Positions 1-42,373 of a DNA stretch of 64,000 nucleotides are shown piece after piece (positions within the stretch are counted from its first letter, which is position 1; each line of letters opens with the position of its first letter). Where the stretch lies: contig JBGAGQ010000017.1 in NCBI GenBank assembly GCA_044226625.1, forward strand, positions 1 to 64,000, given 5' to 3'. A program made the translations under genes and the position numbers. The stretch comes from Thermoanaerobaculia bacterium (GTDB lineage Bacteria; Acidobacteriota; Thermoanaerobaculia; Multivoradales; UBA5704). Under the pieces are notes generated by a model. The model was not told the origin of the DNA. It ran no database searches and worked only from the letters and a program-made list of their open reading frames with translations.

Positions 1-364
1 CGGCATGCACGACGGGTGGGAGACGAAGCGGCGCCGTGGCCCCGGGCACGATTGGGCGCTCGTCCGGCTCGGCCGGCGCGGCCTGCTCTCGCGAATCGAG
101 GTCGACACCTCCCATTTCAAGGGGAATGCGCCGGGCAGCTGCGTTCTCGAAGGATGCGACGCTCCCGACGCTTCGCCCGAGGCGCTCGTGGCCGACGAGT
201 ACGCCGGATGGCGGACGATCGCGCCGCGGACCGATCTGCGGCCGCACACCCGTCATCTCCTCGACGAGCTGGCGTCCGGCGGACCGTTTTCCCACGTACG
301 CCTGCGGATCGATCCCGACGGCGGCGTCGCCCGCCTGCGGCTCTATGGAAGGCTCGCCGAGTGA
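1..364 (+). CDS. alc: Allantoicase, C-terminal part (truncated by window start)
   Basis: DGWETKRRR..GHDWALVRLG, IEVDTSHFKGN and PDGGVARLRLYG are allantoicase repeat motifs; lies in a urate catabolism operon. Confidence 0.9.
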   Translation, partial: GMHDGWETKRRRGPGHDWALVRLGRRGLLSRIEVDTSHFKGNAPGSCVLEGCDAPDASPEALVADEYAGWRTIAPRTDLRPHTRHLLDELASGGPFSHVRLRIDPDGGVARLRLYGRLAE

Positions 365-14404: not shown

Positions 14405-15521
14405 ATGATCGCCTCCGACGTTCAGCAACGGATCGACAAGCTCGCCTCGAAGCTCGGTAACCTTCGGGGGTATCTTTGAGGACGCTGGATTCGAAAAACG
14501 GATCGGCGAGATCGACAAACAGATGGAAGCGCCCGGTTTCTGGGACAACCCGGGCAAGAGCGCACCGCTGCTGCAAGAGCGTAGGGGCCTCGACCGCAAG
14601 CTCGCGACGCTGAAGAAGCTCCGCACCGACGCCTCCGATCTCGACACCTGGAGCGAGCTGCTCGCCGAGGGCGAAGCGGATCCCGAGGTCGAGACCTTTC
14701 TCGAAGGCCTTTCCGGTGACCTCGACAAGCTGGAGATCGAGCTCAAGCTCGCCGGCCCCGACGACGACAAGAGCGCGATCCTGGTGATCCATCCCGGAGC
14801 GGGCGGCACCGAATCGCAGGATTGGGCCGAGATGCTGCTGCGCATCTACCTTCGCTTCGGCGAGCGCCACGGCTACGACGTCGAGCTGATGGAGCGTCAG
14901 GACGGCGAAGAGGCGGGGATCAAGAGCGCCACCCTCGGCGTCCGGGGCGAGTACGCCTATGGATACCTGAAGAGCGAGAAGGGGGTCCATCGCCTGGTCC
15001 GGATCAGCCCGTTCGATTTCCAGGGGCGCCGCCATACTTCGTTCGCCTCGGTCGACGTCTATCCGGAGGTCGACGACGACATCAAGATCGAGATCAACGA
15101 CAACGACCTGCGGATCGATACCTACCGCGCTTCCGGCGCCGGTGGCCAGCACGTCAACAAGACCGATTCCGCCGTGCGCATCACCCACCTGCCGACCAAC
15201 ACCGTGGTCGCCTGCCAGAACGAGCGGAGCCAGATCAAGAACCGCGCGATGGCGATGAAGATCCTTCGCTCACGCCTCTACGACCTCGAGGTTCGGAAGC
15301 GCGAAGCCGAGCTCGCCGAGCGGGAAGGCAAGAAGCTCGACAACGCCTGGGGAAGCCAGATCCGCAGCTACGTCCTCGCGCCCTATCGGCTGGTCAAAGA
15401 CCACCGCACCGGCTGCGAGGTCGGGGACGCCGACAAGGTGCTCGACGGCGGCATCGATCCCTTCATCGAGGCCTATTTGAAGGGGCAGATGTCGGCGGGC
15501 GCCGCGGACGAGCTGGAGTAG
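14405..15521 (+). CDS. prfB: Peptide chain release factor 2 with programmed +1 frameshift
   Basis: ATG 14405, then GGGGG-TAT-CTT-TGA-G (CTT 14474-76, TGA 14477-79); the +1 frame continues into the long ORF with SPF and GGQ motifs. Confidence 0.96.
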
Positions 15522-35171: not shown

Positions 35172-35284
35172 CCCTCGCTTCGAACATTGAGTCCGCGTGA
35201 GCGCGCGGGGCGAAGACTTCGACGCCTTTCGGTGCGCAGAGGGTGTCGCGTACCCGGCGGAATTCCCTCGTATACTCCCACGCC

Positions 35285-36310
35285 ATGTCCATTACCTTTG
35301 GAATCTTCTTCGGTTTCGTGACCTGGTTCATCGTCCGCTACCTGCTCGCCGGCCTGTACACGGTCGACCAGAACGAGCGGGCGGTCAAAACCGTGCTCGG
35401 GCGCGCCCAGCGGTTGCCCGGACAGTCGACGTTGCAGGACCCGATCGCGCAGGCCCTGCGGCCCGACGAACGCGATCGCTACAACTACCCGCAGGTGCGC
35501 GTGATCCCGCCGGGCGGCCCCTATTTCCGCTGGCCCTGGGAGCGCGTGCACAAGATCTCGGTCGCGACCAACACGCTCAACATGGCGTTCGATCCCGAAA
35601 CGCCGAGCGCGAACTCCGGCGGCAAGCTGCTCGAGGCGGTCACGAAGGACCAGCTCAACACGGGGCTCACCGGGCAGATCCGGTATCGGGTCTCCGAGCG
35701 GAATCTCTACGCCTATCTGTTCGGGGTGAAGAACCCGATCGCCCACGTGATGGGATATTTCGTCTCGATCCTGCGGGAGCGCATCTCGAATTTCGAGGCG
35801 CCGCATCCGTCGGGGCCGGTCGATCTGGAGAATCCGGTGAGCCCGCCGGTCCAGCTCGAGAGCCAACCTCCCGAGGCGACCGTCGTTTCCGGCATCTCGA
35901 TCAACGACCTGCGCAAGAACCTTCGCGATCTGAACGATCACATGGACCGGGAGTGCCGCTCGTCCGCCGCTCGCTACGGCATCACCCTCGACGCCTCCTT
36001 GATCACCGAGATCGATCCGCCAGCGGAGGTCGAATCCGCGCTGGCCGCGATCAACACCGCGCACAACCACGTCTCCTCGGACATCAGCCTGGCGCACGCG
36101 GCGGCGGACCAGAAGATCGTCCAGTCCAAGCGCGCGGTCGAGATCGAAACGCTCAAGGCGGAGGGTGAGGTCGAGCCGCTGGTGCGGCTCGCCGAGCAGC
36201 TCTCCGATTTGAAGAGGCAGGGACCGCATGCCCTCTCGGCGTACCTGAGGAACGTGCGGCTCGGCCTGTTCGGCAAGGCGCAGGACGCCTTCGTGGAGGT
36301 GAAGCGATGA
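35285..36310 (+). CDS. SPFH/band-7 domain protein
   Basis: N-terminal TM, YTVDQNERAV...GR, AVTKDQ, C-terminal coiled-coil-like region. Confidence 0.8.
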   Translation: MSITFGIFFGFVTWFIVRYLLAGLYTVDQNERAVKTVLGRAQRLPGQSTLQDPIAQALRPDERDRYNYPQVRVIPPGGPYFRWPWERVHKISVATNTLNMAFDPETPSANSGGKLLEAVTKDQLNTGLTGQIRYRVSERNLYAYLFGVKNPIAHVMGYFVSILRERISNFEAPHPSGPVDLENPVSPPVQLESQPPEATVVSGISINDLRKNLRDLNDHMDRECRSSAARYGITLDASLITEIDPPAEVESALAAINTAHNHVSSDISLAHAAADQKIVQSKRAVEIETLKAEGEVEPLVRLAEQLSDLKRQGPHALSAYLRNVRLGLFGKAQDAFVEVKR

Positions 36311-37200
36311 GCTTCCTGATCGCTGCGTTCGTCACGTTCCTCGTGATGATGTTCCTGGTGCCGTTTCTCCTCTGGGTGGTGCGCGTCCTCGGCCTTTACG
36401 CGATCGTCTACGAGCGGACCTGCCGCGTCTACGTGTTGTTCGGCAAGGTGATCGGTGTCCTCGACGAGCCGGGCCTCCACATCCTGCTGTTCAAGCTCGG
36501 ACCGGCGGCGTTCCTGGTCAACTGGCTGGGCAAGTGCCACGTGCTCGACATGCGCCTCGATCAGGAATACTTGCGAAGCCAGCCGGTCAACTCCGAGGAA
36601 GGCGCGCCGATGGGGATCGGCGTCTGGTACGAGATGTACATCTCGGATCCGGTCGCCTTCCTGTTCAAGAACACCGATCCCCGCGGCTCGCTGCGCGCCA
36701 ACGTCAGCAACGCGACGGTCCGTTGCCTGTCGAACATGAAACTCGCCGACATGCTGGAGACGCGCCATCAGATGAGCGCCACGGTGCGCGCCGAGGTGTC
36801 GGAGAAGTCGCACGAGTGGGGGTACAAGCTCGGCTCGGTCTACGTCCGCAAGGTCCACTTCCGCGACGGCGGCATGATCCGGCAGATCGAAGAAAAGGTG
36901 GTCAACCGTCTGCGCCAGGTCACCTCGGCGATCAAGCAGGACGGCGCTAATCAAGTGAGCATCATCACCAGCACCGCCGAGCGCCAGGCGGCGATCGAGT
37001 TCGCCAAGGCGAGCGCGATGCGACCGCAGATCGTCGGCGCCGCCTTGAACCAGATCTCGAAGGATCCGGAGATCGAGGCCGCCCTCTTCGAGATCCTCGA
37101 AAATCAGCGCTTGGTCGAGGGGAACGCGCGCGTCACCCTGATGCCCGAGGGAGGCGAGCTGCTCACGAACCTGCTCGCGGGCGGAGCGAAGCGCCTCTGA
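36307..37200 (+). CDS. SPFH/band-7 domain protein (second of the pair)
   Basis: N-terminal TM, LFGKVIGVLDEPGLH, EWGYKLGSVYVRKV; ATGA coupling. Confidence 0.8.
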   Translation: MSFLIAAFVTFLVMMFLVPFLLWVVRVLGLYAIVYERTCRVYVLFGKVIGVLDEPGLHILLFKLGPAAFLVNWLGKCHVLDMRLDQEYLRSQPVNSEEGAPMGIGVWYEMYISDPVAFLFKNTDPRGSLRANVSNATVRCLSNMKLADMLETRHQMSATVRAEVSEKSHEWGYKLGSVYVRKVHFRDGGMIRQIEEKVVNRLRQVTSAIKQDGANQVSIITSTAERQAAIEFAKASAMRPQIVGAALNQISKDPEIEAALFEILENQRLVEGNARVTLMPEGGELLTNLLAGGAKRL

Positions 37201-37281: not shown

Positions 37282-38352
37282 ATGAACGCCGCCAAGACCG
37301 TCACGCCGTCGCAGTTGATGGACTTCCTGCTCAACGTGGCGGTCGTCCGTCCGGTCTTCATTTGGGGGCCGCCGGGGATTGGCAAATCGAGCCTGGTCGC
37401 TCGGTTCGCCGAGCAGCTGGGCCTGCACTGCGTTTCCCTCCTCGGCAGCCAGCTCGCGCCGGAGGACCTGATCGGCGTGCCGCAGGTGACCGACGGCGTG
37501 AGCCGCTTCTGCCCCCCGGCCGAAATCGCGCGGAACGAGCCGTACTGCCTCTTCCTCGACGAGCTAAACGCCTGCTCGCACGAGGTTCAGAAGGCGTTCT
37601 ACAGCTTGATCCACGAGCGCCGGATCGGCGAGTACCGCCTGCCCGAAGGGTCGATCGTGATCGGCGCCGGGAACCGGGCCCAGGACAGCGCGATCGTCAA
37701 ACCGATGTCATCGGCGCTGCTGAATCGGATGGTTCACGTCCACCTGACCGTTTCGCACCGCGACTGGATGGCCTGGGCGCACACGAGCGACGTCCACCCG
37801 TTGGTGATCGAATACCTCGAGCTTCGTCCCGATCAGCTCTGGAGCGCGCCGCCTAAACACGAGGAGCCGTTTTCGACCCCGCGTTCTTGGCACATGTTGA
37901 GCGACGCGCTTCATCAGTTCGGGGCGGGCATCCGCGACGAGGAGATCGAAGCGCTCGCTTACGGTTGTCTTTCACCGCAGCACGCGACGCAGCTCAAGGC
38001 GTTCGCCAAGCAGAAGCGAAGCCGTTTCGCGCTCCATGCCATCTTGAAAGGCGATTCCGGGTGGCCGCACGATCCGGCGGACCGCGATGTCCTCTACTTC
38101 CTCTCGCAGTCGTTTCGGACGCATCTGCAGCGCGAGCTGCCGCAAGATCCGCAGGGACTTCAGCCGCAGCACAAACAGCTTGCCCATCGCGGCAAGGCAC
38201 TGCTCAAGGAGCTGGCCGCGATCAGCCTGGAGATGGCGCAGTTGGTCGTGGCGGAGGAGGGTGGCGACGCCGCGGCGGGGAACCTGCCGAGCTGGTTCCT
38301 GGTCGAGGTCGTTCGCGACCTGCCGCGCTTGGTCGAGAAACGTGCCCCGTAA
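37282..38352 (+). CDS. MoxR-like AAA+ ATPase
   Basis: Walker A GPPGIGKS, Walker B LFLDELN, GAGNR, TPRSW. Confidence 0.9.
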   Translation: MNAAKTVTPSQLMDFLLNVAVVRPVFIWGPPGIGKSSLVARFAEQLGLHCVSLLGSQLAPEDLIGVPQVTDGVSRFCPPAEIARNEPYCLFLDELNACSHEVQKAFYSLIHERRIGEYRLPEGSIVIGAGNRAQDSAIVKPMSSALLNRMVHVHLTVSHRDWMAWAHTSDVHPLVIEYLELRPDQLWSAPPKHEEPFSTPRSWHMLSDALHQFGAGIRDEEIEALAYGCLSPQHATQLKAFAKQKRSRFALHAILKGDSGWPHDPADRDVLYFLSQSFRTHLQRELPQDPQGLQPQHKQLAHRGKALLKELAAISLEMAQLVVAEEGGDAAAGNLPSWFLVEVVRDLPRLVEKRAP

Positions 38353-40162
38353 ACCGGAAAAGCGGCGCGAGGACCCGGCCGATCAGGCGTATCGGGAGGG
38401 GACCGACGCGATCCGCAATCATCCGCTGTTCCTGCCGCTCACCTTTCGCACGGACTTCTACCGCAACGTCCACCAAAACCTCTGCCCGCCGGGTGGTTGG
38501 GCGGTCGCCAACGTGCGGGGCCTCGTCTACTGCCACCCCAAGCGGCGGGCGAGCCCGGAGGAGTGGACCTGGGTGATCGGACACTGCCTGCTCCACTATG
38601 GATTCGGGCATTTTCAGACTCGAGCCCGTCCCGACCTTTGGAACGTTGCCTGCGACTTCTTCATCGACCGCTTTCTCGCCGATTTGAAGCTGGGCCGGCG
38701 CCCCGCGGAGATCCCCGAGCTGAAGCTTCCACCCGGGGCGCCCGCGACCTCGGAAAACGCGCTGTACGACTGGCTGTTCGAAAACGGCGTTCCCGTGGAG
38801 CTTCGCGGCGGCGGGACCGCCGGACCGGGAGCGTTGGACCTTTCGTTCGAGGTGGACCGATGGCGGGGCAAGCTCACGCCATACGGCAAAGAGTGGAGGG
38901 ACGCGCTGGGCGCGGGGCTGCGCAACGCCGTCGCAGCGGCGGTCGACGTCGCGGGAGGTAAAGCGGCGAGCCTCACCGGGGCTACGGGGCCGACCACTCC
39001 TGCCCAACGCGGAAGGTCTTGGTTCATGACCCGCTATCCGCTGCTGGGAGCGCTCGCGGCCTCGTTCCGGCTGATCGAAGACGGCGAGGTCTGCCGCCGC
39101 CTGGACGTCCACGTGGCGGCGGTCGACGCCGAGGCGCGCGAGCTCTACGTCAACCCGCAGATCGGCATGGACGACGGCGAGGCTCGCTTCGTGATGGCTC
39201 ACGAGCTGCTGCACGTTGGCCTCCGCCATCAGGCTCGCTGCCAGGGGCGCGATCCGTTCCTCTGGAACGTCGCGTGCGACTACGTCATCAATGCCTGGTT
39301 GGTGGAGATGGACGTGGGACGGCCGCCGGCTTTCGGAGTGCTGCTCGATCCGGAGCTGAAGGGGCTTTCGGCGGAAGCGATCTACGACCGGATCGTCGGC
39401 GACCTCCGCCGGTTTCGGAAGATTTCGACCTTGCGCGGTGTGGGCGTCGGCGACATCCTTCCGGGCAGAAACCCGCGCTGGTGGCAGGTAGGGGAGGGGG
39501 TGGCGCTCGATGAGCTCTACCGCAACTGCCTGACCCAGGGGCTGCTCTGGCACCGCGACCAATGTCGCGGTCTCCTCCCCGCCGGCCTGATCGAAGAGAT
39601 CGAGGCGCTCGCGCAGCCGGTGATTCCGTGGGACGTGCAGCTTGCGCAGTGGTTCGATCACCGGTTCCCGCCCAAGGAGAAACGGCGCACCTATGCCCGT
39701 CCGAGCCGGCGCCAGATGGCGACTCCCGATCTGCCGCGACCTCGCTTGGCGCCCCTCGACGACGGCTCGATCCGCACCTTCGCGGTGGTCCTCGATACCT
39801 CCGGAAGCATGGATCGGAAGCTCCTGGCCAAGGCGCTCGGCGTGATCGCGAGCTATGCCGCCTCGCACGAGGTCGACGCCGTGCGGCTCGTGTTCTGCGA
39901 CGCCGCCGCGTACGACGAGGGCTACGTCCGTGCGGAGGACATCGCGGGCCGGGTGCGGGTCAAGGGCCGCGGCGGCACCGTCCTCATGCCCGGTATCGAG
40001 CTCCTCGAGAAGGCCCCGGATTTTCCGCGAAGCGGGCCGATCCTGTTGATCACCGACGGTTTCTGCGACGACCTCACGATTCGCCGTGACCACGCCTATC
40101 TCGTGCCGGCGGGGAACTCTCTGCCCTTCTCTCCACGAGGTCCGGTGTTCGGGATTTCGTGA
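38342..40162 (+). CDS. DUF2201-type putative metallopeptidase plus VWA domain protein
   Basis: HCLLH..GH and HELLH..RH, each followed by WNVACD; VWA motifs DTSGSM, GRGGT, ITDG; GTG start overlaps the ATPase. Confidence 0.85.
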   Translation: MPRKPEKRREDPADQAYREGTDAIRNHPLFLPLTFRTDFYRNVHQNLCPPGGWAVANVRGLVYCHPKRRASPEEWTWVIGHCLLHYGFGHFQTRARPDLWNVACDFFIDRFLADLKLGRRPAEIPELKLPPGAPATSENALYDWLFENGVPVELRGGGTAGPGALDLSFEVDRWRGKLTPYGKEWRDALGAGLRNAVAAAVDVAGGKAASLTGATGPTTPAQRGRSWFMTRYPLLGALAASFRLIEDGEVCRRLDVHVAAVDAEARELYVNPQIGMDDGEARFVMAHELLHVGLRHQARCQGRDPFLWNVACDYVINAWLVEMDVGRPPAFGVLLDPELKGLSAEAIYDRIVGDLRRFRKISTLRGVGVGDILPGRNPRWWQVGEGVALDELYRNCLTQGLLWHRDQCRGLLPAGLIEEIEALAQPVIPWDVQLAQWFDHRFPPKEKRRTYARPSRRQMATPDLPRPRLAPLDDGSIRTFAVVLDTSGSMDRKLLAKALGVIASYAASHEVDAVRLVFCDAAAYDEGYVRAEDIAGRVRVKGRGGTVLMPGIELLEKAPDFPRSGPILLITDGFCDDLTIRRDHAYLVPAGNSLPFSPRGPVFGIS

Positions 40163-40222: not shown

Positions 40223-40534
40223 TCAGACCGTGATCGGAACCGCCACGGTCCAGTTCGCCCCGACCGCCGTGCTCGCCGGCGCGGTGTAGGTTTTGGGTAC
40301 GCCGCCCGTGGTGAGGGTCACTTTGAACGCCTGCGGGCCGCCCCAGTTGATCCCCACCATGATGAGGGTGTAAGCACCCGGCGCCAGGATGGCCTGCGGA
40401 CGGACCGTGTAGCTCACGGGGTCGTTGTAGCCCGATTTGATGTGGCAAATCTCCGAGCTTCCGGCGGGAGTGGAGGCCAGGATGTAGAGCTCGTTGTCCG
40501 TGGCGCTGACTTCGATCTTCGTGGTCTGGGACAT
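40223..40534 (-). CDS. Small beta-rich hypothetical protein
   Basis: 103 aa; GGAG RBS; coding-like codon usage; GINWGGP. Confidence 0.7.
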   Translation of the reverse strand: MSQTTKIEVSATDNELYILASTPAGSSEICHIKSGYNDPVSYTVRPQAILAPGAYTLIMVGINWGGPQAFKVTLTTGGVPKTYTAPASTAVGANWTVAVPITV

Positions 40535-40697
40535 GACGCGATCTCCGGTGCCCGTCCGTCGAGAATCATTTCTCGCCGGCTGACGGGGAAGATCCGGTCA
40601 GGCGTCCGATGGGTTAGTGCATTCCAAAGTCGAAAAGCCGCGCCGTCGTCGATCCTTCGGCTCCGGTCCGTGTCAAGATCGCTCCCGGAGGAGCACC

Positions 40698-41360
40698 ATG
40701 AAACCATCCACCAAGAAGGCGATTCGCTGGACGGCGATCGGTCTGGGCCTGGTCGTCGTCGCGGGCGTCACCTGGGCCTTGGTCACGATCGGACCGAGCA
40801 ACGTCTGGGGAATGCTGCGCTACGACACGCGGAAAGAGGGGAAGCTTCAGGTCGGGGACTCGGCGCCCGATGTGGCGCTCCTCGCGCTCGACGGGAAGAC
40901 GCGCGTCCACCTGCGCGAACGGGTGGGTGAACGGCCGCTCATCGTCATCTTCGGCAGCTACACCTGACCGCCTTTCCGGCGCTCGGTCGAGCGCCTCATC
41001 GATCTCCACCGCCGCTACGGCGACAAGGCCACGTTCGTCGCGGTCTACATCCGCGAAGCGCATCCGACCGACGAGTGGCAGATGGAAAGCAACGAAAAGG
41101 AAGACGTCTGCTATCCGCAGCCAAAGAGCACCGCGGCGCGGGTGGCGATTGCGAACGATTTCGTCCGCCGCTTCCACTTTCCAATCCCGCTTTTGGTCGA
41201 CCCGATCGAGAATCCGGCAGACAAGGTCTACGCCGGTTGGCCCGAGCGCTTCTATGTGATCGACGAGCAAGGGACGATCGTCTACAAGGGAAAGACCGGC
41301 CCGTTCGGATTCCACCCCGAAGAAGTCGACGCCTGGCTCGCGAAGCGGTTCGCGAGCTGA
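40698..41360 (+). CDS. Iodothyronine-deiodinase-like selenoprotein (Sec at TGA 40965-40967)
   Basis: GGAGGAG RBS; read-through gives FGSYT-U-PPF, then YIREAHPTDEW, YAGWPERFYVI, GPFGF; SECIS-like hairpin directly downstream. Confidence 0.88.
40978..40995 (+). promoter_or_regulatory. Putative bacterial SECIS element
   Basis: GGCGCTC-GGTC-GAGCGCC: perfect 7-bp stem with a G-first loop, 10 nt after the UGA. Confidence 0.7.
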
Positions 41361-41488
41361 AAACGTGGGAACTCCCGAGCCTTCGCCGAAGGACAGACGG
41401 ACTGCGTCGGGCCTCGTTCCGGCTCGCCGATCTAGAATGAGCCAGGATCATCGCGGTTCGTTCCCCTTCGACCGAGGAGCCCTTCTTC

Positions 41489-42373
41489 ATGAGCGTCGAC
41501 AGCTTCCGCTTTGCCTCGCCGTTGATCAAGCGGTACTACCAGATGAGCCGGGTGACGAGGGAGCTGCCGATTCCTTTCACACGGCCGAGAAAGCCCATCT
41601 CTGAAAGTCGGATCTCGCTCGTCACGACGGGGGGCCTCTACCGCCGTGGCCATGACGAGCCGTTCGATCAAGACCGCGAGCGGCGCGAGCCGGCGTGGGG
41701 CGATCCGAGCTACCGCGCGATCCCGACCGACGTCGACTTGGCGGAGCTCGCGGTGGGCCATCTCCACATCAACCCGGACGACCCCTCCGCCGATCCGAAC
41801 ATCCTCCTTCCGATCGACCGGATCAAGGAGCTCGTTGCGGACGGCAAAGTCGGCAGCCTCGGCGCCCGCGCCTACTCATTCATGGGATACCAGGGCTTTC
41901 CCGCCGATCCTTCCGGTTGGAAGAAGATCTATGGACCGGAGGTGCTCGCGGCGCTCCAGGCCGATCGCGTGGACGCCCTCCTGCTCACCTCGGCCTGACT
42001 GGAGTGCGCGGCCAACGTGCCCGTGTTGGCACGTCTGTTCGAAGGCGGGGGGATCGCCACGGTCGTCGTGACCAACATGCCCTTCTGGGCCGAACGGGTC
42101 GGAACCCCGCGAACGCTCGCCGTCGAGTTTCCTTTCGGTCACCCGCTCGGCGGCACGCACGATCGAGAGATGCAGCGGCGGGTGATCCTGGCGGCGCTCG
42201 AGCTCATCGAGCGAGCGAGCGCGCCGGGGGAGATCGAAGAGTTTCCGGAGAAGTGGGGCGGCTCGGTCGCCGAAGGGCGACGGATCTCCGAGCCGCGAAT
42301 CCCCGCGCCGATCACCGCCCAGATGGGGCGCCACATCGGCGCGTTCCTGCGCGGCATGCGGCGTTCGGCCTGA
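41489..42373 (+). CDS. PrdB/GrdB-like (reductase selenoprotein B family) selenoprotein (Sec at TGA 41996-41998)
   Basis: LVTTGG, GDPSYRAIP, DPNILLP, YSFMG, LLTSA-U-LEC (UxxC), VGTPR, FPFGHPLG; ORFs 41489-41998 and 42017-42373 are in the same frame. Confidence 0.87.
42011..42030 (+). promoter_or_regulatory. Putative bacterial SECIS element
   Basis: GCCAAC-GTGCCCGT-GTTGGC stem-loop, 12 nt after the UGA. Confidence 0.55.

Follow-up and report, generated by a model that had tools for sequence, protein, structure and literature searches.

The window analysed here, the 64,000-nucleotide (nt) stretch at positions 1 to 64,000 of contig JBGAGQ010000017.1 from a Thermoanaerobaculia bacterium, carries a gene for a membrane-anchored, deiodinase-like protein that is interrupted by an in-frame TGA and is read here as a selenoprotein gene (Table 1). 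The gene forms a single frame with one internal TGA and a second TGA (positions 41358-41360) as its stop codon. When the internal TGA is translated as selenocysteine (Sec, U) the product has 220 amino acids and an estimated mass of about 24.5 kDa, and the N-terminal segment KKAIRWTAIGLGLVVVAGVTWALV and the motifs FGSYT-U-PPF, YIREAHPTDEW, YAGWPERFYVI and GPFGF are all present where an earlier sequence-only reading of this DNA had placed them. The ATG at 40698 is chosen as the start over an upstream in-frame GTG at 40617 because it is preceded by a GGAGG element and because the closest homologues have MKPS or MKPA as their N termini. A scan of positions 40400-41600 for promoters and terminators returned none of either.

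Table 1. Positions in the window of the features discussed in the text
Feature	Position	Strand	Basis and details
Deiodinase-like selenoprotein gene	40698..41360	+	Translation; 220 codons plus stop, Sec is codon 90
Shine-Dalgarno-like GGAGG	40687..40691	+	Read from the sequence; 6 nt 5' of the ATG at 40698-40700
N-terminal hydrophobic anchor, residues 13-31, AIGLGLVVVAGVTWALVTI	40734..40790	+	Hydropathy; preceded by a basic tail with 4 Lys/Arg in 12 residues
Thioredoxin-fold deiodinase catalytic domain with Dio-type insertion, residues 45-217	40830..41348	+	Pfam, AlphaFold, Foldseek
UGA selenocysteine codon, U90 in T-U-P-P-F	40965..40967	+	TGA in 80/80 related loci, Cys in homologues
Bacterial selenocysteine insertion sequence (SECIS) hairpin, 7-bp stem, GGUC loop	40978..40995	+	Covariation, frozen synonymous sites; stem GGCGCTC 40978-40984 / GAGCGCC 40989-40995, loop GGTC 40985-40988; stem begins 10 nt past the UGA
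Cys138 codon, putative resolving cysteine in the Dio-type insertion	41109..41111	+	Conservation
PrdB/GrdB-family selenoprotein gene, 294 amino acids, Sec170 in TSA-U-LEC	41489..42373	+	In-frame TGA 41996-41998
prfB (release factor 2, RF2) with programmed +1 frameshift	14405..15521	+	GGGGG-TAT-CTT-TGA-G; CTT 14474-14476, in-frame TGA 14477-14479
ELWxxDGT-repeat protein, 902 amino acids	42468..45176	+	TIGR04534, 372 bits in 10 stretches; no Pfam match
Divergent open reading frame (ORF), 103 amino acids	40223..40534	-	G+C at third codon positions 0.88, strong codon bias; matched by neither Pfam nor NCBIfam; no relative in the 80 loci
MoxR-type AAA+ ATPase gene, then overlapping 691-amino-acid DUF2201 metallopeptidase-like/VWA gene	37282..40162	+	
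Two SPFH/Band-7 genes ahead of the MoxR/VWA pair	35243..37200		

The catalytic domain is assigned to the deiodinase family by profile, by sequence and by fold. Residues 45-217 match Pfam PF00837 (T4_deiodinase) with 124.5 bits (E 5.7e-36, profile positions 68-236 of 237), passing the gathering cut-off of 27 bits, and the match is one unbroken stretch that spans the in-frame TGA. Redoxin (37.1 bits), AhpC-TSA (30.5 bits) and Thioredoxin_8 (23.8 bits) are also matched, the first two above their own cut-offs. The sequence-only reading had named a better score for a generic AhpC/TSA redoxin as grounds for giving up the deiodinase assignment, and it is the deiodinase profile that wins. A sequence search of the PDB returns mouse Dio2 (9h48, E 2.3e-22) and Dio3 (4tr3, E 8e-22), with 30-32% identity to these chains and the next match only at 3.7e-05. 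The AlphaFold2 model calculated from 47 aligned relatives has a mean predicted local distance difference test (pLDDT) value of 91.8 and a predicted template modelling (pTM) score of 0.83. Foldseek places it closest in the PDB to Dio2 9h48 (E 1.7e-15, target-normalised template modelling (TM) score 0.85 over 181 columns) and next to Dio3 4tr3 (E 2.8e-15, 0.80 over 177 columns). DsbE, ResA, Bcp, Tpx and similar chains come after these, from 5.9e-09 downward, and the comparison with Dio3 that had been suggested as a check thus leaves Dio2 and Dio3 as the top folds, six orders of magnitude ahead of the DsbE, ResA and peroxiredoxin chains. Normalised to the query, the TM scores are 0.69-0.71 for Dio compared with 0.47-0.54 for generic redoxins. 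The Dio columns include the Dio-type insertion, and this Dio-specific segment (loop-D) is likewise aligned to Dio2 and Dio3 in the PDB-chain alignments.

Relatives of the gene were collected in a scan of one genome per species, in which at least 569 stretches encode a relative, and the best 80 loci were used for the codon, hairpin and neighbour counts. The aligned codon is TGA in 80/80 of these loci, 79 being picked up with an initial pattern and the eightieth, L046 (LGSFT-U), by inspection and with a relaxed pattern. The locus titles name metagenome-assembled genomes (MAGs) of Acidobacteriota, Thermoanaerobaculia or Holophagales in 74 cases, and the remaining six are labelled Planctomycetota, Polyangiaceae (2), Pseudomonadota (2) and "bacterium". 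Among 120 database homologues listed, 111 are entries of 121-161 amino acids that cover 48-56% of the query at 66-83% identity, and the seven half-length homologues that were aligned all begin right after the TGA; such entries fit gene callers halting at the Sec codon. The nine full-length database homologues have Cys (four entries, P0006-P0009) or Trp (five entries) at the site, the latter being the residue that a TGA read under genetic code 4 would yield. The wider family comprises 4189 representative clusters at E values up to 0.001, and of the best 150 representatives examined, 133 cover the Sec position and show Cys in 115, Trp in 6, Ser in 6 and other residues in 6. Selenoprotein families are classically recognised by such pairing of Sec with Cys at one position. 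These alignments strongly support the decoding of UGA-90 as selenocysteine, which would presumably be inserted by SelB. Ordinary gene callers would mis-annotate the gene; read correctly, it gives an acidobacterial genome one more selenoprotein.

The TGA might instead be a real stop, leaving two short ORFs or a pseudogene, or might encode Trp under another code. Gene callers do split the gene, the database holds many of the 121-161-residue entries, and W stands at the site in five others. However, a single deiodinase domain spans the TGA, conservation is among the highest in the 38 codons from the TGA to the next ATG, and the TGA is constant over loci among which a broken gene would vary. The family's alternative residue is Cys and not Trp, and the gene's own terminal codon is also TGA, making a stop, pseudogene or Trp reading very unlikely.

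The perfect GGCGCTC/GAGCGCC stem with a GGUC loop described in the sequence-only reading lies downstream of the UGA as stated there, and comparison across the loci makes it a credible bacterial SECIS. When 81 sequences (78 of them distinct) are aligned without gaps, 86.6% of the cells for the seven proposed pairs are paired, compared with 31-68% when the partners are slid by 1-3 columns. Changes on both sides occur in three pairs (16 cells), and the covariation score is reached by 0/500 shuffles. At pair 19-26, five distinct sequences (e.g. L056, L061, L066, L077 and L078) have G-C in place of U-A, at the cost of replacing Ser96 with Ala and Glu98 with Ala, and pair 15-30, which links two Arg codons through their third positions, is GC in 48, CG in 8, AU in 2, GU in 2 and unpaired in 18. 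The third positions of codons 95, 96 and 97, which form the stem top and the loop, have entropies of 0.19, 0.10 and 0.10 bit, the lowest three among 58 four-fold sites; the other 55 range from 0.51 to 1.72 bit and include two spacer Pro codons at 1.46 and 1.35 bit. The peptide RRSVER encoded by the hairpin is absent in three of the four Cys forms, which have RRNTSD, RRNTTT or RRNSGD instead, the loss of the hairpin there being judged from protein only. This loss would fit a constraint on the RNA rather than on the protein. The 10-nt spacer, the G+C stem of 6-7 bp and the GGUC loop resemble in their geometry the SelB-binding element of E. coli fdhF. As in the K-12 fdhF SECIS, the element lies within the coding region and pairs a G+C stem with a GGUC apical loop, which is at +21..24 from the U of the UGA and therefore one base nearer to it than in fdhF (+22..25). 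It differs from the fdhF element in having a perfect helix of 6-7 bp with neither a bulged U nor a long lower stem. Rfam has no family at gathering score anywhere in the window, and in two scans none matched the hairpin, near which only opposite-strand, chance-level hits (E 1.8-9.3) were seen.

Several observations count against the recoding reading. The hairpin taken alone is not beyond chance (z = -1.72, with 13/200 shuffles folding equally well), and at -14.3 kcal/mol it competes with an alternative minimum free energy fold of -14.7 kcal/mol. Because this alternative is 0.4 kcal/mol better and the z value is only -1.72, the comparative evidence is what is relied upon. The outermost pair 14-31 is formed in only 25/78 distinct sequences and the conserved helix is therefore 6 bp long. 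The hairpin overlaps the conserved RRSVER codons, with the result that part of its conservation is at the protein level, and the stem is without the bulged U of the E. coli stem, which is important for E. coli SelB. None of selA, selB, selC and selD lies within the 64,000 nt and a tRNA scan of the window found no tRNA, and thus no tRNA-Sec, so that the presence of the Sec machinery is presumed. The organism is taken to decode Sec because the deiodinase-like gene has as its neighbour another gene with an in-frame UGA, a member of the PrdB/GrdB family. The probability that the gene truly encodes a selenoprotein belonging to the deiodinase (PF00837) branch of the thioredoxin fold is put at about 85%, a figure that covers identity and recoding but not the substrate. 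The profile scores, the Dio2 and Dio3 fold matches and the credible SECIS uphold the earlier proposal that this is a bacterial protein of the iodothyronine deiodinase family, with an N-terminal anchor and with Sec.

The active-site residues were mapped through the alignments to the PDB Dio2 and Dio3 chains, and the numbering was checked against the Dio2 structure paper (PMC11592359). Conservation was judged in alignment A2 (47 rows), in which the kept residues are invariant or at least 90% conserved. Their Dio2 and Dio3 numbers are counts along the alignments, with matching names in that paper for Ser127, Thr129, Tyr157, Glu160, His162, Sec170 and His202. The residues kept (Dio2 and Dio3 equivalents in parentheses) are Ser87 (Ser127, Ser167), Thr89 (Thr129, Thr169), Sec90 (Sec130, Sec170), Tyr117 (Tyr157, Tyr197), Glu120 (Glu160, Glu200), His122 (His162, His202) and Glu183 (Glu225, Glu259). 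The proton relay described for Dio2 consists of Ser127, Thr129, Tyr157, Glu160, His162 and His182 (PMC11592359), of which five of six are present here and the second His is lost, Pro142 taking the place of Dio2 His182/Dio3 His219. Pro142 is invariant in A2 and Pro is found in 121/147 family representatives covering the position. Two further residues are lost. Ile163 stands at the distal, selenenylsulfide-forming Cys (Dio2 Cys205/Dio3 Cys239), and Thr200 is at the position of Dio3 Arg275/Dio2 Lys241, the basic residue proposed as the clamp for the hormone carboxylate (PMC11592359), where the A2 consensus is Pro.

The motif FGSYT-U-PPF aligns to FGSCTCPPF in Dio3 and FGSATCPPF in Dio2. The animal motifs cited in the sequence-only reading (FGSCT, YIEEAH and ERL) are all seen in Dio3, as FGSCTCPPF, YIEEAHPSDGW and FERLYVI, but the Cys of "SCT" is not universal, being Ala in Dio2 and Tyr88 here, and hence its replacement is no departure from the family. 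The same reading held that the catalytic set is kept except for this Cys, which does not hold as worded, since it overlooks the replacements at Pro142, Ile163 and Thr200. The enzyme thus retains the chemistry-proximal core and the Dio-type insertion without the residues for thyronine recognition or the known ones for re-reduction. The residue map divides the animal active site into an ancient part, to which the Sec, the insertion and the network of Ser, Thr, Tyr, Glu and His belong, and thyroid-specific additions, namely the clamp, the distal Cys and the second of the relay His residues. Vertebrate Dio1-3 share with the query the N-terminal anchor, FGS-x-T-U-PPF, YI-x-EAHP-x-D-x-W, the E-R past the β-strand and the Dio-type insertion. 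They differ in that Sec insertion depends here on a bacterial hairpin in the coding region and not on a SECIS in the 3'-untranslated region, and the membrane orientation is likely to be opposite.

The anchor has a mean Kyte-Doolittle hydropathy of 2.28 over its 19 residues, and a basic tail followed by a hydrophobic segment is also seen in homologues with a complete N terminus and in the four Cys forms. In the model a helix formed by residues 3-31 is followed by a conserved helix (residues 33-42) bearing G-P-x-N-V-x-G-M-L-R-Y-D. There is strong support for a product in which a short basic tail at the N terminus leads into a single transmembrane helix, followed by a juxtamembrane helix that is conserved and by the Dio-like catalytic domain. 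Because the net charge of the N-terminal flank equals or exceeds that of the C-terminal flank in nearly all rows with a usable N terminus, an N-in/C-out orientation with the domain facing the periplasm, like ResA, TlpA and CcmG, is judged the more probable one. ResA as second NCBIfam match was also counted toward a periplasmic topology. Against this, the C-terminal flank also has 2-4 Lys/Arg and most homologue N termini derive from tblastn boundaries, which leaves the topology call weak. An N-terminal anchor joined to a thioredoxin domain is the ResA/TlpA architecture, and ResA, TlpA, CcmG and DsbE resemble the query in this arrangement and provide the next-best structural matches. The query differs from them in having no CxxC and in carrying the Dio-type insertion, and their scores are far below those of Dio.

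Cys138, in the V-C-Y-P-Q-P word of the insertion, shows a conservation of at least 90% in A2. It is present in 16/22 presumed Sec forms (12/16 post-TGA fragments and 4/6 "W" forms) and in 3/107 Cys forms among the family representatives, and a Cys at query position 155 is found in 82/115 Cys forms. Cys138 is therefore a candidate, specific to this clade, for the resolving residue and may replace the distal Cys of Dio. The counts are not phylogenetically independent, and the correlation of Cys138 with Sec may reflect mere shared ancestry.

In the favoured scheme the protein would use its Sec for redox cycling at the outer surface of the membrane. The selenolate of Sec90, placed at the start of helix α1 and backed by the conserved network of Ser87, Thr89, Tyr117, Glu120, His122 and Glu183, would attack an electrophilic atom of the substrate, which may be the oxygen or sulfur of a peroxide or sulfenate-type group or a halogen. 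The intermediate so formed (Se-OH, Se-S or Se-X) could be resolved by Cys138, giving a selenenylsulfide, or by an external thiol acting directly, after which a thiol-disulfide system would re-reduce the enzyme.

For the chemistry of this cycle a general reduction of the peroxide or thiol type is preferred, tentatively and at somewhat under an even chance, because the family is mostly Cys-based, the thyronine-specific residues are absent and the discoverers of the family suggested a redox role (PMC1088965). Reductive dehalogenation of haloaromatics, for which homology alone would speak, is considered unlikely, and what probability remains goes to something else. Recognition of a thyroid-hormone-type substrate is unlikely because neither the carboxylate clamp nor the second relay His is present. 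Weighing against any assignment of function to the Sec-based cycle, the published literature found holds no biochemical data for any bacterial member, and the 80 loci show no conserved neighbour hinting at a reductant or substrate and no DsbD/CcdA-type partner. The nine genes that surround the locus in the window do not recur next to the deiodinase-like gene in these loci either, with the exception of the ELWxxDGT-repeat protein (L003).

A stricter form of the redox reading makes the protein a plain peroxiredoxin or thiol-disulfide oxidoreductase of the AhpC/TSA or ResA/TlpA type, whose likeness to deiodinases would be functionally meaningless, and its chances are rated close to but short of one in two. 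The Redoxin and AhpC-TSA matches that pass their Pfam cut-offs, the second place of ResA in NCBIfam, the DsbE, ResA, Bcp and Tpx chains that follow Dio in the fold search and the ResA/TlpA-like joining of anchor and thioredoxin domain are all in keeping with it. The peroxiredoxin active-site word is P-x3-T/S-x2-C, and Ser87-x-x-Sec90 fits its T/S-x2-C part, with Val83 and not Pro at -7. On the other hand, the deiodinase profile scores 87 bits higher, the TM scores to Dio2 and Dio3 (0.85 and 0.80, from 177-181 columns with the insertion among them) and their query-normalised values exceed those of the generic redoxins, which reach only E 6e-09 or weaker, and the site is T-U-P-P-F with no CxxC.

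Another possibility is a selenium-dependent reductive dehalogenase of natural iodo-, bromo- or chloro-aromatics, in effect a functionally true bacterial deiodinase, in which the selenolate would take X+ as in the Dio half-reaction to form Se-X. Membership of the deiodinase family and its fold, retention of the Dio-type insertion and of the Ser/Thr/Tyr/Glu/His network, an active-site word, U-P-P-F, identical to the animal one, and the strict keeping of Sec rather than Cys in 80/80 loci of the clade agree with such an activity, whereas the missing thyronine-binding and relay residues (Dio3 Arg275/Dio2 Lys241 and Dio2 His182), the prevalence of Cys in the wider bacterial family (115/133), the lack of a halogen-related gene context and the generic redox role proposed by the family's finders (PMC1088965) make it improbable, at perhaps one chance in five. 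Less probable still is a more specific version, in which the anchored, Sec-keeping U-P-P-F clade, widespread in soil and sediment Acidobacteriota, would be a corrinoid-independent, selenium-dependent surface dehalogenase of natural haloaromatics, with Cys138 as a new resolving residue and with the chemistry from which animal deiodination was recruited. If true, such a clade would represent the prokaryotic chemistry behind the deiodination of thyroid hormones in animals.

Prokaryotic deiodinase-like selenoproteins with a bacterial SECIS were described from the Sargasso Sea by Zhang, Fomenko and Gladyshev in 2005, with four Sec and six Cys sequences (PMC1088965). The Global Ocean Sampling (GOS) study of 2008 counted 22 Sec and 21 Cys deiodinase-like sequences in a table that gives no redox word (PMC2398784), and the family entries in reviews of 2022 and 2026 carry the redox word UxxC (PMC9312934, PMC13188914). 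The hallmarks given for the family are PF00837, an in-frame UGA for which homologues have Cys and a SECIS whose small apical loop contains G (PMC1088965), and the query shares with it the UGA/Cys pairing and a downstream hairpin with a small G-containing loop. The word UxxC does not apply to the query, which has U-P-P-F, a Cys at +3 being found in 0/80 loci. The examples in print are marine metagenome reads, while the query clade consists mainly of Acidobacteriota/Thermoanaerobaculia MAGs. A literature search confined to one library of papers found no publication on the biochemical function of the family and none tying it to Acidobacteria. The family has thus been known from sequence since 2005, and the query is a further and expected member of it, perhaps belonging to a distinct U-P-P-F, membrane-anchored, acidobacterial subclade. 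The sequence-only reading was essentially right overall, incomplete in its statement on the catalytic residues and overstated in its novelty, the family being already in print (PMC1088965).

The bacterial family is large, as the cluster and genome counts above indicate, and representatives P0125-P0274 show that it contains distinct active-site types. A large Cys type reads FGNFTCGPFR ... YVREAHPTDGW ... MPSRLY; it has Arg at the Dio3 Arg275 clamp position (62/143 representatives) and no equivalent of Glu259. A few representatives (e.g. P0171, P0178 and P0210) have FGSCTCPPF as in animal Dio1 and Dio3, and in many the family domain forms the C-terminal part of a protein of 400-900 amino acids. 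Membership of NCBIfam NF038285 ("deiodinase family protein", deiodinase_rel) was rejected for the query, which scores 205 bits against a cut-off of 250 bits and matches only the C-terminal half (positions 177-338 of 347). Members of this bacterial, Cys-type family have an N-terminal region of about 175 residues that the query lacks, sharing only the catalytic half with it. The true members P0138, P0128 and P0125 score 270-428 bits, have FGNFTCGPFR ... MPSRLY and carry Arg at the clamp position, in contrast to Thr200 in the query. ResA, the second NCBIfam match of the query, is weak. The idea that the query clade is closer to animal Dio than other bacterial clades was also discarded, the scores to Dio3 being 91.8 bits for P0133, 73.1 for P0138 and 80.9 for the query.

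The window has 67.4% G+C and looks like ordinary chromosome, with genes for uricase, xanthine dehydrogenase subunits, RF2, UvrC, pyrimidine biosynthesis and a two-component system, and with the MoxR/VWA pair just upstream of the deiodinase-like gene. De novo clustering of the flanking ORFs in the related loci gives only clade-limited synteny or spurious high-G+C ORFs, the former comprising an OmpR-type regulator (23 loci), a large membrane protein (17) and an aminotransferase-like protein (17), named from reading their sequences. The MoxR/DUF2201-VWA genes are an ordinary pairing without a link to the deiodinase-like gene in other loci. A relative of the ELWxxDGT-repeat protein, 49% identical, adjoins the deiodinase-like gene in L003 only. 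The PrdB-like gene starts 128 nt downstream of the deiodinase-like gene, an adjacency seen in 0/80 loci, and its product matches Pfam GRDB with 37 bits and TIGR04483 (PrdB) with 118.7 bits, below the 300-bit cut-off of that model. Of its homologues listed, 111/120 are exactly 169 amino acids long, ending at the TGA, and the fold downstream of this TGA is not better than that of shuffles (z +0.52). RF2 competes with Sec insertion at UGA, and in the prfB gene of the window the long ORF from position 14523 has a PCRF match from profile position 12, plus RF-1.

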